From assembly GCA_963705255.1 (NCBI GenBank), contig OY970061.1, positions 512,001 to 576,000 of the forward strand: a stretch of DNA of 64,000 nt, in the 5' to 3' direction. Of this stretch, positions 21,153-57,220 are shown in pieces. The DNA is from an uncultured Methanoregulaceae archaeon (GTDB lineage Archaea; Halobacteriota; Methanomicrobia; Methanomicrobiales; Methanospirillaceae). Position 1 is the first letter of the stretch. Each line of letters opens with the position of its first letter. Under the pieces are notes generated by a model that saw only the letters and a program-made list of their open reading frames with translations, searched no databases and was not told the DNA's origin. A program made the translations under genes and the position numbers.

Positions 21153-21320
21153 GTGATGAACGCCGCCGCCCCCGGCGGGGCGCAGTCGAAGAACTCTGAT
21201 GAGTTCTTCTCCAGCCAATCTTTGCTGAAGCAACTATTGTCTCCCCGTGGCGGATCAGTGACGAATAAATTCTGAAAACCTTCCTGCCCCGCCGTGCCTC
21301 GGAGAGGCCCTGAGGCGGGG
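21153..21320 (+). repeat. Bipartite palindromic repeat A with a 59-nt mini-element inserted (21184-21242)
   Basis: Aligns with 57107-57220; the left arm GGGGCGC^CCCCG is split by the insert. Confidence 0.88.
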
Positions 21321-21358
21321 AACCCTCGCTCCTATGAATTTTCCGATCCGGCCTCCAC

Positions 21359-21420
21359 GGTCGAAGAACTCTGATGAGTTCTTCTCCTCCTCGAGGTTCT
21401 GACGAACCTCTTCGGATTCT
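21359..21420 (+). repeat. Stand-alone two-hairpin mini-element abutting the nitroreductase stop codon
   Basis: TCGAAGAACTC-TGAT-GAGTTCTTCTC then TCC-TC-GAGGTTC-TGAC-GAACCTC-TTC-GGA. Confidence 0.85.
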
Positions 21421-39864: not shown

Positions 39865-40076
39865 GGGTACAATGTTCATGGGTAAACCAAAAAATGTTTG
39901 TAATCAGTCCAAAAATATCCGGGGATCAGATTTGCTTGAATGCCGTGATAATGAATTCACTTCGTGCCCGGGCATCGCGCAGGTCAGGTATCTCCGGTTG
40001 GAGTAAAAAAGGCAGAGGCACGGATGCGCTGAGTGGGAAGAAAAGGCTTTGGAGAAATCATAGGTTTTCATCTTAG

Positions 40077-40371
40077 ACGCTCTGAGGGCTACGGCATCTG
40101 ATCCCTCCCCGCTGCTTAGGCATCCCCCATAGAGAGATAGTCCCTTAAAAGGTTAGTGAAAATCCTGCCGAAAATGGGGTCGCAGATTTACTTTGTAAAT
40201 CTTCTCCTCTTCGAGGTCTGAAGACCTCTCAGAGATTCAAGGGGATGCTCCCCCTGCGTTGCCCCCCTTCTGGGGGCAGACTGATGTTCCCGAAGGGAAA
40301 TCGCGGAAGGTTGTCTCTCTTTTACCATTGCGATGAACGCCGCCGCCCCCGACGGGGCGCCCCCGCGGCGG
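40077..40371 (+). repeat. Host repeat B (mini-element 40179-40236, remnant 40278-40299) followed by the left arm of repeat A (40330-40371)
   Basis: Similarity to 3638-4080 and 57107-57148. Confidence 0.85.
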
Positions 40372-40472
40372 TTTTTATACGGTTATATTTGAAAAAACGA
40401 ATGGTAAAATTCACTTTCATTCTGCGTAATACAGATTATTAAATACAGGGATTAAGAATAGTCCATTGAGAT

Positions 40473-41096
40473 ATGGATTTGTCGATAAAAGACCGTAAAA
40501 AATTATGGAGCGCGGCTTCCGGAATATGTTCCTATCATCATAATGGCGAAAATTGTGAAAAAAAACTATTTGCAGCGAATGGAATGGTTGATACCAACCT
40601 AGGTGAAGAGTGCCATATTGTCGGTGAAAGACCCGGCGCTGCAAGATATCTAGAAAATTTTGCTGAAAAAGAGACTTCCGACAATGCAATTGTCCTATGC
40701 AAAATACATCATAAAATTGTTGATGATAATCCCGATGAATATACGGTGGACGTCCTTAAAAGAATGAAAGAGGAGCATGAACGCACAATCTCCGAAAGAT
40801 TAGCAAATCGAGAAATTGTACCATTTATATTAAATGATTGTCAGATCTTGCTTAAAGTTGATAAAGCGGAAGAAGATGTAATAGGATTAGATGTTCAGAG
40901 ACCCGCAATACTTTCGAATGTTGGTGTAAGGGTCCAAGTAGGTGAAGCCAAGACCGCAATTGGAATGAAGGTTTCAGGAGGACTTACTGTAACAATGGGT
41001 TATTGTGAAAATTGTAAAAGATATTTTAGTAAATCCTTTTCAGGTCAACAAGATACGCAAATTAAAGAATGCCCTTCCTGTCATCGACCTGTATAA
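40473..41096 (+). CDS. AT-rich HNH endonuclease with C-terminal zinc ribbon
   Basis: LWSAASGICS..C, GEECHIV, NAIVLCKIHHKIVD, MKEEHE; C-terminal CENC...CPSC. Confidence 0.88.
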   Translation: MDLSIKDRKKLWSAASGICSYHHNGENCEKKLFAANGMVDTNLGEECHIVGERPGAARYLENFAEKETSDNAIVLCKIHHKIVDDNPDEYTVDVLKRMKEEHERTISERLANREIVPFILNDCQILLKVDKAEEDVIGLDVQRPAILSNVGVRVQVGEAKTAIGMKVSGGLTVTMGYCENCKRYFSKSFSGQQDTQIKECPSCHRPV

Positions 41097-41140
41097 AACC
41101 TTCCTGCCCCGCCGTGCCTCGGAGAGGCCCTGAGGCGGGG
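41095..41140 (+). repeat. Right arm of repeat A, overlapping the HNH stop codon
   Basis: 46 nt identical to 21275-21320. Confidence 0.9.
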
Positions 41141-41301
41141 GCCTCCCCTATCAGAATTTTCATAATTTTTTGTGGAATTATCCATCTTTTTCGTTTCAAC
41201 CGAACATGGTGAAGAAACTGGATCGTCCCAGCCGGTACAAGTGGACCTCCACGCTCAATCCGAAACCGCTATATCGGGCGATCATTCATAGAGATGTGAC
41301 T

Positions 41302-57106: not shown

Positions 57107-57220
57107 GCGATGAACGCCGCCGCCCCCGGCGGGGCGCCCCCGCGGCGGGTTGATTGCCTGTTTTCTAAAATATGATCGGTAATTTGCCCCGCCGTGCCCC
57201 GTAAGGGGCCCTGAGGCGGG
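57107..57220 (+). repeat. Uninterrupted bipartite repeat A (left arm 57107-57148, 36-bp spacer, right arm 57185-57220)
   Basis: Both GC-rich hairpin arms recur at 21153-21320 and at 40330-40371 / 41095-41140. Confidence 0.88.

Follow-up and report, generated by a model that had tools for sequence, protein, structure and literature searches.

The stretch of DNA analysed here (the window, 64,000 nucleotides in all; G000:C1:512001-576000) belongs to the genome of an uncultured Methanoregulaceae archaeon, G000, a single contig of 2.60 Mb with 54.6% GC. In its mntR-cofE interval, an AT-rich gene for a predicted HNH nuclease is enclosed by the left (L) and right (R) arms of a dispersed hairpin repeat. 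The explanation that we favour, with about even confidence, is that the middle of this repeat is a landing place for foreign units, that the HNH gene is a passenger in it, and that the block of gene plus arms later moved to a second locus. In this case, the middle of a hairpin repeat has received foreign single genes and an insertion sequence, and a block of gene plus arms has turned up again at another locus. Archaeal intergenic hairpin repeats are barely described. If their arms act as portable homology, dispersed repeats would provide an enzyme-free route for the spread of small accessory and defence genes in methanogens, and this would help to explain the many AT-rich orphan genes in GC-rich methanogen genomes.

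The L and R arms are conserved, GC-rich hairpin modules of a mosaic, non-coding Methanoregula repeat family, and the stretch between them is hypervariable, AT-rich and the place where extra DNA collects. Across the whole G000 genome, the cores of the arms yielded 39 La, 28 Lb, 38 Ra and 67 Rb matches, and about 35 clusters of 83-390 bp have L before R on the same strand, with an interior of 11-100 bp in most copies. Among the single elements of G000, only the HNH copy, at 808 bp, exceeds 390 bp; two clusters of more than 1 kb are each two separate elements with host genes between them. An 18-mer of the L arm (at most one mismatch) is present in 100 of the 108 genomes of the genus, at 0-129 copies each, and the reversed 18-mer, used as a control, gave 0-1 matches per genome, so that the L matches are not due to chance. 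The same 18-mer occurs in 64 of 301 genomes drawn from the order, and multiple copies are confined to the genus itself and a few genomes belonging to two others. A full-text literature search returned no description of such repeats in Methanoregula, nor of HNH genes inside repeats of the repetitive extragenic palindromic (REP) type.

We surveyed the interiors between paired arms at about 425 L arms in 17 genomes of the genus (G000 and 16 others), counting only arms that were listed or fetched; 36 + 29 rows of the match listings and about 11 unmatched G035 arms lie outside this count. L and R were paired by script in G035 and by eye in the other genomes, and the candidates were then fetched. 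At least six long interiors emerged, five of which bear genes (about 1% of the L arms). Four of the gene-bearing interiors have the same orientation as their arms: the HNH gene of G000 (207 aa), a 1.3-kb AT-rich interior in G004 with a 384-aa, multi-membrane-span orphan open reading frame (ORF) that belongs to no Pfam family, an interior of about 880 bp in G031 with a degenerate zinc-ribbon/membrane ORF, and a 1.6-kb insertion sequence in G091 with a DDE_Tnp_1 transposase (E 2e-14). The fifth, 1.0 kb at 24-38% GC in G046, carries a 282-aa transglutaminase-like gene in reverse orientation, flanked by both canonical spacer halves. The remaining interior, in G085, is a non-coding mosaic of other repeat modules of about 700 bp, to which orientation does not apply. 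As the cargos are unrelated to each other yet occupy the same position, a landing site is the favoured reading. A reading of the letters alone (hereafter the sequence-only reading) had proposed such a catalogue, in which unrelated genes between the arms would speak for a landing site and an ever-present HNH gene for a parent element, and the cargos of G004, G031, G046 and G091 speak for the former. The likeness to integron cassettes that it drew at the same time did not hold up: the unrelated interiors uphold the landing part, whereas the absence of a nearby recombinase and of arrays, the rarity of cargo and the occurrence of cargo without arms speak against the analogy.

In the cargo ORF of G031 (L167 593-660), no stop codon precedes the R arm; the reading frame continues across the 5' half of the R hairpin as far as the TGA within the conserved CCTGAGG. 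The insertion sequence of G091 (L196 360-2250, minus strand) is bordered by arrays whose unit, some 40 nt long, is of the GATTGAAAAA type, and by an inverted TTGCTCTGTAGAAA / TTTCTACAGAGCAAAA pair. Three further candidates were discarded: a supposed long pair in G010 (C7) turned out to be short or diverged, L192 holds a host gene between two elements, and in L191 the L arm is followed by a toxin-antitoxin pair and no R arm. The 40 regions fetched from G035 had short or diverged R arms, or no R arm.

Further evidence comes from a metagenome contig of a related lineage (L096), which aligns to window positions 40327-41141 at 85%. As the alignment spans both arms, the leader of the gene and the trailer, both blocks derive from one insertion event. 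The flanks of the block in L096 match G000 1631270-1634097 (86%) and 1636856-1639718 (92%), that is, they map elsewhere in G000, and the block therefore occupies two non-homologous loci; the G000 site between these flanks holds 2.76 kb of other genes and no arms. The HNH gene was found between arms only in G000 and in this contig, and chance does not account for finding this block again, with its junctions in common, at another locus. The outer left module differs between the two copies, being A-type in the G000 block and B-type in the L096 block.

At the place that L-HNH-R occupies in L096, the G000 interval at 1634100-1636850 (L131) contains a PIN/AbrB-type toxin-antitoxin pair and an AT-rich ORF of 481 aa; this gap, bounded by the GH18-like gene and scpA, is a variable hot spot.

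We infer a single entry of the gene, followed by recombination. An HNH unit, consisting of its own promoter region and the ORF of a stand-alone Cap5-type nuclease, would have entered the spacer once, and the whole L-HNH-R block would later have reached the second, non-homologous locus in the related lineage. The simplest route, and the one that we favour, would be homologous recombination, in which the arms of the incoming block pair with a resident short copy and so serve as portable homology; alternatively, the element may have been mobilised in trans by an enzyme. Recombination at the arms would account for the differing outer left modules. The hairpins could moreover benefit their cargo, for example as terminators or insulators. 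A more far-reaching version, which we consider unlikely, makes the L/R pair a carrier: promoter-plus-ORF units would be copied between repeat copies within and between genomes, with the arms as portable recombination sites for the host machinery or a hairpin-recognising enzyme and the HNH nuclease perhaps aiding by cutting empty copies, and the repeat would be a recombinase-less, dispersed archaeal counterpart of the integron.

The block is recent and dispensable. A 14-kb contig of a sister strain (run X5), 96-97% identical over mntR and cofE, joins 39967 to 41258 via 224 other letters, so that this strain lacks a block of 1.29 kb that comprises both arms, the HNH gene and an unrelated dispersed repeat (repeat B); the sequence-only reading had asked whether the interval is free of the element in sister genomes, and here it is. 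In 18 genomes of the genus, cofE aligns only from 41261 onward, and upstream of cofE there is a worn short L-R copy in G017 and an L arm in G013 and in G014. Joints from 40371 to 41095-41120 in the sister-strain data, considered as excision products, proved to be paralogous short copies with spacers of their own.

The rival that survives best, although we regard it as unlikely too, is coincidence: AT-rich single-gene islands would insert and persist across the intergenic DNA of Methanoregula, and some would land between hairpins whose arms are passive. Such islands abound in G000, where 256 of them (<42% GC over at least 450 bp) add up to 267 kb or about 10% of the genome and 219 are 450-1600 bp long, the size of a single gene. 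Were each of the 256 islands a random insertion in non-coding DNA, one would expect about half a hit per genome in the L-R spacers, and because islands are so plentiful, one co-occurrence alone is not improbable. All four cargo gene families that were checked also exist without arms, among them, as AT-rich single-gene islands, HNH (L015 and L016), the G004 orphan (in G046 and G100) and the G031 ORF (in G089); cargo is rare, at about 1% of the arms examined, and that of G046 is reversed relative to its arms.

The abundance of islands thus weighs against the landing-place explanation, and so do several other observations. Cargo does not scale with copy number: about 89 L arms examined in G035 and 70 listed for G007 yielded none, whereas four cargos lie in genomes with 5-15 arms. 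The survey sees only insertions that spare both arms, and the spacer is therefore favoured by construction. No filled/empty pair turned up, and no defined ends or target-site duplications of the element were found. The proposed recombination route rests on two known copies of the block, whose arms are too conserved for a crossover to be mapped, and a Y1 transposase (PF01797) had no match in G000 (89.5% complete), with 6 of 14 control genomes positive.

Against coincidence stands, above all, the second copy of the L-HNH-R block, since independent landings would not give homologous junctions at a non-homologous locus. All six different interiors lie in the spacer, although the survey is biased that way. 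Moreover, the block interior is matched above all 200 shuffles by 2 of the 63 short spacers, compared with 0 of 63 in the reverse-complement control; both lie in G000: the spacer at 1022250 matches the leader (interior 35-62) and that at 870553 the last codons (interior 675-694), both collinear with the block. These matches hint that the two spacers could be decayed HNH-bearing copies.

The nature of the cargo bears on the further alternatives. The ORF at 40473..41096 encodes what is, judged by its sequence and predicted fold, a real HNH nuclease. Residues 1-113 correspond to a Cap5-type HNH domain and residues 118-207 to a beta-rich domain with a CxxC...CxxC zinc ribbon. PADLOC models for effector nucleases of cyclic-oligonucleotide-based antiphage signalling systems (CBASS) match residues 5-110 (SAVED_HNH 5.8e-20), and a profile of the 31-member family retrieves the HNH endonuclease 9om4_A (5.1e-23) and Cap5 (7rwm, 2.6e-16) from the PDB. 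The AlphaFold2 model (predicted local distance difference test score 82.8) has Cap5 8fmf as its best Foldseek match (1.9e-6). H48, N71, H79 and H80 are invariant in the 31 family members, and the catalytic His/Asn/His motif together with the likeness to solved HNH nucleases places the protein in the HNH (beta-beta-alpha-Me) superfamily; no Pfam family reached E 0.1 for the HNH region. For the C-terminal domain, the ESM Atlas gave no usable match, Foldseek none beyond the HNH part, and Pfam zinc-ribbon matches were sub-threshold only. The protein thus resembles Cap5 (7rwm, 7rwk, 8fmf) in its HNH domain, as far as sequence profile and predicted fold tell, and differs from a CBASS Cap5 effector in its size of 207 aa with matches confined to residues 1-113, in lacking a SAVED sensor and an adjoining cyclase gene, and in its unmatched beta-rich zinc-ribbon C-terminal 90 residues.

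The HNH gene and its DNA are single-copy in G000. The ratio of non-synonymous to synonymous substitution rates between G000 and L096 (0.23, at a synonymous divergence of 0.31) indicates that the gene has been under purifying selection; the L096 reading frame is disrupted by a 1-bp deletion. Full-length relatives are few (13 clusters in a large protein collection) and come from Methanoregula, Dehalococcoidia, Acidobacteriota, Micrarchaeota, Planctomycetota and Patescibacteria, with restriction-modification, TIR, PIN, OLD-type ATPase, Fic, integrase, serine-recombinase and IS110 genes as neighbours; no conserved partner gene was found among 55 neighbouring ORFs at 25 loci. These proteins define a small, unstudied nuclease family, a Cap5-type HNH domain joined to a zinc-ribbon beta domain, in defence neighbourhoods across phyla. 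Within the genus, 6 of 108 genomes have relatives of the gene, and G034 and G035, with their 126-129 L arms, have no match. G013 retains a 145-bp 3' fragment of the gene without arms, which lies (L010 3650-4350) just after a gene pair resembling a small antitoxin and a GNAT toxin.

With a nuclease interrupting a conserved multi-copy sequence, one might think of homing: the HNH protein would cut the empty spacer of the repeat, or of a subfamily of it, and repair from an occupied copy would spread the gene in the manner of free-standing homing endonuclease genes. The joint movement of block and arms would suit this idea, as would the possible remnants in two spacers, the purifying selection on the gene and the existence of short copies that share the block's L-arm variant, have a 12-nt TTCAAC spacer and resemble exact empty sites. 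We nevertheless hold homing to be distinctly improbable, given that one of about 35 G000 copies is occupied while the closest empty copies are intact, that the HNH domain is most closely related to non-specific effector nucleases of CBASS, that the family is found elsewhere in defence or mobile neighbourhoods without such repeats, and that the other cargos are not nucleases.

Very improbable, and largely refuted by distribution, is an autonomous parent element, in which L-HNH-R would be the full-length form, HNH its mobilising enzyme and the short copies deletion derivatives akin to miniature inverted-repeat transposable elements (MITEs). The sequence-only reading had offered such a gene-bearing parent as its second option, and for the block itself the option retains limited support from the second locus, where the boundaries again lie at the arms, and from the collinear look-alikes in 2 of 63 spacers. 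For the repeat family it fails: 100 of 108 genomes carry the L arm (up to 129 copies each), whereas relatives of HNH occur in 6 of 108 and lie between arms in G000 alone, and this distribution excludes the gene as the engine of the family. Unrelated cargos, furthermore, share the same position, the two remnant-like spacers begin on their L side with ATCCGTGAC/ATCAATTAC and not with the block's TTTTTATAC, and we know of no HNH-only transposase.

Least probable of all is a dedicated cassette system, in which L and R would be single-stranded-hairpin sites of a site-specific recombinase that captures and releases single genes as at integron attC sites: unrelated single genes with minimal flanks do lie between the same two hairpins, next to imperfect palindromes conserved in structure more than in sequence and maintained by compensatory change, and the HNH cargo ends exactly at its stop codon, but there is no recombinase among the ORFs of 37.5-43.5 kb around the window copy, no Y1 transposase in G000, no integrase, no attI and no cassette array (both places with tandem elements hold ordinary host genes), a different hairpin stands on each side, the cargos bring their own promoter regions, filled sites amount to about 1%, the G091 interior is nothing but an ordinary insertion sequence, and that of G046 keeps both spacer halves, as a plain insertion would.

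Repeats as insertion targets and cargo-carrying, MITE-like elements are already known as kinds. The hairpin repeats of the REP type and the bacterial interspersed mosaic elements (BIMEs) built from them are insertion targets, and IS1397 inserts in the BIMEs of E. coli. Like these, the Methanoregula repeats are dispersed, GC-rich intergenic mosaics of imperfect palindromes, one of which has an insertion sequence between its palindromes (G091). Unlike these, they reside in an archaeal host and consist of two unlike hairpins in fixed order and orientation; G000, without any match to PF01797, has neither a REP-associated tyrosine transposase (RAYT) of the Y1 type, as expected of REP/RAYT (REPIN) systems, nor an IS200/IS605 enzyme, the interiors include single genes other than transposases, and the block recurs at a second locus.

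In mobile insertion cassettes such as MIC231 of Bacillus cereus (Chen et al. 1999, cited in PMC6199540), the inverted repeats that enclose the passenger gene are those of a known insertion sequence, which moves the cassette in trans. Like these cassettes and passenger-bearing MITEs, the L-HNH-R element is short and non-autonomous, has conserved ends around a passenger and no transposase, and coexists with gene-less copies in the same genome; its ends, by contrast, are two different hairpins in direct order rather than mutual inverted copies, and no cognate insertion sequence was found. Minimal mobile elements, defined in Neisseria (Saunders and Snyder 2002; PMC3787668), have one slot with conserved flanks in which different single genes or small gene sets replace each other through homologous recombination, with no enzyme encoded by the element; this is the mechanism that we favour for the movement of L-HNH-R. 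The Neisseria flanks are unique conserved genes at one chromosomal site, while the arms here are dispersed and 40-46 nt long, so that any copy could receive cargo. The element can be assigned to none of these three classes, whose defining enzymes or ends were not found here; it resembles the first two, and its proposed spread resembles that of the third.

Within the window copy (Table 1), the sequence-only reading had placed the arms correctly and had rightly seen an AT-rich ORF between them: the interior measures 723-733 bp and has 34-41% GC, compared with 54.6% for the genome. The TAA of the HNH gene (41094-41096) overlaps, by 2 nt and as had been claimed, a 46-nt stretch that is 100% identical to 21275-21320. 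The distance of 31-36 bp given earlier for the arms of two short copies is right only if counted from the L end: the L hairpin at 21153-21320 has a 57-bp hairpin module nested inside it, which that reading had missed, and 32 bp separate its L end from the R arm. At 57109-57220 the arms are 37 bp apart. The L arm is 100% identical over 45-52 nt to G000 copies at 244970, 782657 and 1646096. The A-type outer module precedes the L arm in about 14 copies, and the window copy lacks its inner part (tattattcagatatca). In the leader, homology to the arm-less HNH loci L015 and L016 begins at 40422/40429, and an indel of 25 bp distinguishes it from L096. Since the arm-less loci share the leader from 40422, this part belongs to the gene unit and is probably the promoter of the HNH gene, with the boxes TTTTTATA and ATTATTAAATA as candidate drivers of its expression. 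The genes neighbouring the window copy are mntR, a ZnuA-type gene and cofE.

Table 1. Repeat elements and the HNH gene in the window (positions counted from its first letter).
Feature	Positions	Strand	Description and basis
Repeat B, unrelated dispersed repeat	40045..40300	+	at least 8 other G000 copies, 81-92% identity
A-type left outer module, remnant (ggttgtctctcttttaccattgc)	40300..40331	+	comparison of the 110 nt upstream of all La matches
L arm, GC-rich nested hairpin	40332..40372	+	outer stem CCGCCGC/GCGGCGG, inner stem GCCCC/GGGGC; folded
AT-rich leader of cargo	40373..40472	+	T-run/TATA-like TTTTTATA directly after L arm
HNH nuclease gene (predicted), 207 aa	40473..41096	+	ORF; PADLOC, PDB profile, AlphaFold2, Foldseek
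R arm with AAAACCTTCC lead-in	41095..41141	+	outer stem CCCCGCC/GGCGGGG, internal loop GU/CCUGA, inner stem GCCUC/GAGGC; folded
Degenerate right outer module (ctatcagaattttcataatttt...)	41142..41205	+	akin to the ~70-nt module after R; comparison of the 110 nt downstream of all Rb matches
Short repeat copy, 32-bp spacer	21153..21320	+	57-bp hairpin module (GAAGAACTCTGATGAGTTCTTC...) nested in L hairpin tip
Canonical short copy	57109..57220	+	B-type upstream hairpin, L arm, 37-bp spacer, R arm

Repeat B, about 250 bp long, lies directly upstream of the element in the window; its other copies in G000 never adjoin L or R arms.

Longer copies of the repeat have extra hairpin modules inside the tips of L and R and keep the outer stems. 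The outer stems are nearly invariant and are therefore uninformative on compensatory change either way. In the inner stem of R, compensatory pairs are seen among 33 parsed unique copies: pair 4 is U-A in 14 and C-G in 17, pair 2 is C-G in 30 and G-C in 2, and one copy has U-A at pair 3. With fold z-scores of -1.5, -0.7 and -2.0, single arms do not stand out. The gaps between host genes that hold elements are 12 convergent, 10 divergent and 10 tandem (n=32, with genes crudely called), and these near-even classes argue against a fixed orientation of the elements to host genes. Rfam at gathering thresholds found one tRNA in the whole window and nothing at the arms. A C/D-box or K-turn RNA (GATGA...CTGA) was considered and rejected, since, on inspection by eye, the internal loop of R (GU/CCUGA) lacks the second G-A pair of a K-turn. 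Small hairpins whose loop reads CTGATGA or CTGAAGA (GAAGAACTCTGATGAGTTCTTC and the like) occur in the window at 21181-21237, 21357-21420 and 40200-40240; modules of this kind recur both within the tips of the L and R hairpins and as free-standing units next to them. The CUGAUGA loop resembles a hammerhead or C-box core, for which Rfam had no match.

In other copies than those with the A-type module, a B-type left hairpin (gggggttgagaccccc...ataccccc) lies upstream of L. On the other side, a module of about 55-70 nt (cgattttcatggttccggagtgaac...gttcatgtccgtttctccagag) follows R in many copies, for example at G000 70021-69936 (minus strand); BLAST of G000 found 8 copies of it. Its reverse complement precedes the left side in some copies, for example at G000 622311-622363, and many copies have another left module. 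Together, the right module and its reverse complement form a long bracket around L...R that resembles terminal inverted repeats; no insertion sequence with the ends of this repeat was found.

Some genomes are dominated by arm variants of their own: G007 has GGGACG in L and GGCAGGG in R, G005 has CCACAG, and a genus from a different family has CCCAC. Positions that pair change jointly in these variants, yet not into Watson-Crick pairs. A further hairpin of the same mosaic family, module X (...cgcaaaacgcctagtcgggttttgcg...), is found at L015 3710-3769, at L168 1160-1215 and at G000 71847-71902, 135693-135747 and 1104733-1104783. In G046 it follows the arm-less HNH gene at a distance of 90 bp on the downstream side, and in G085 and G035 it occurs inside L-R spacers.

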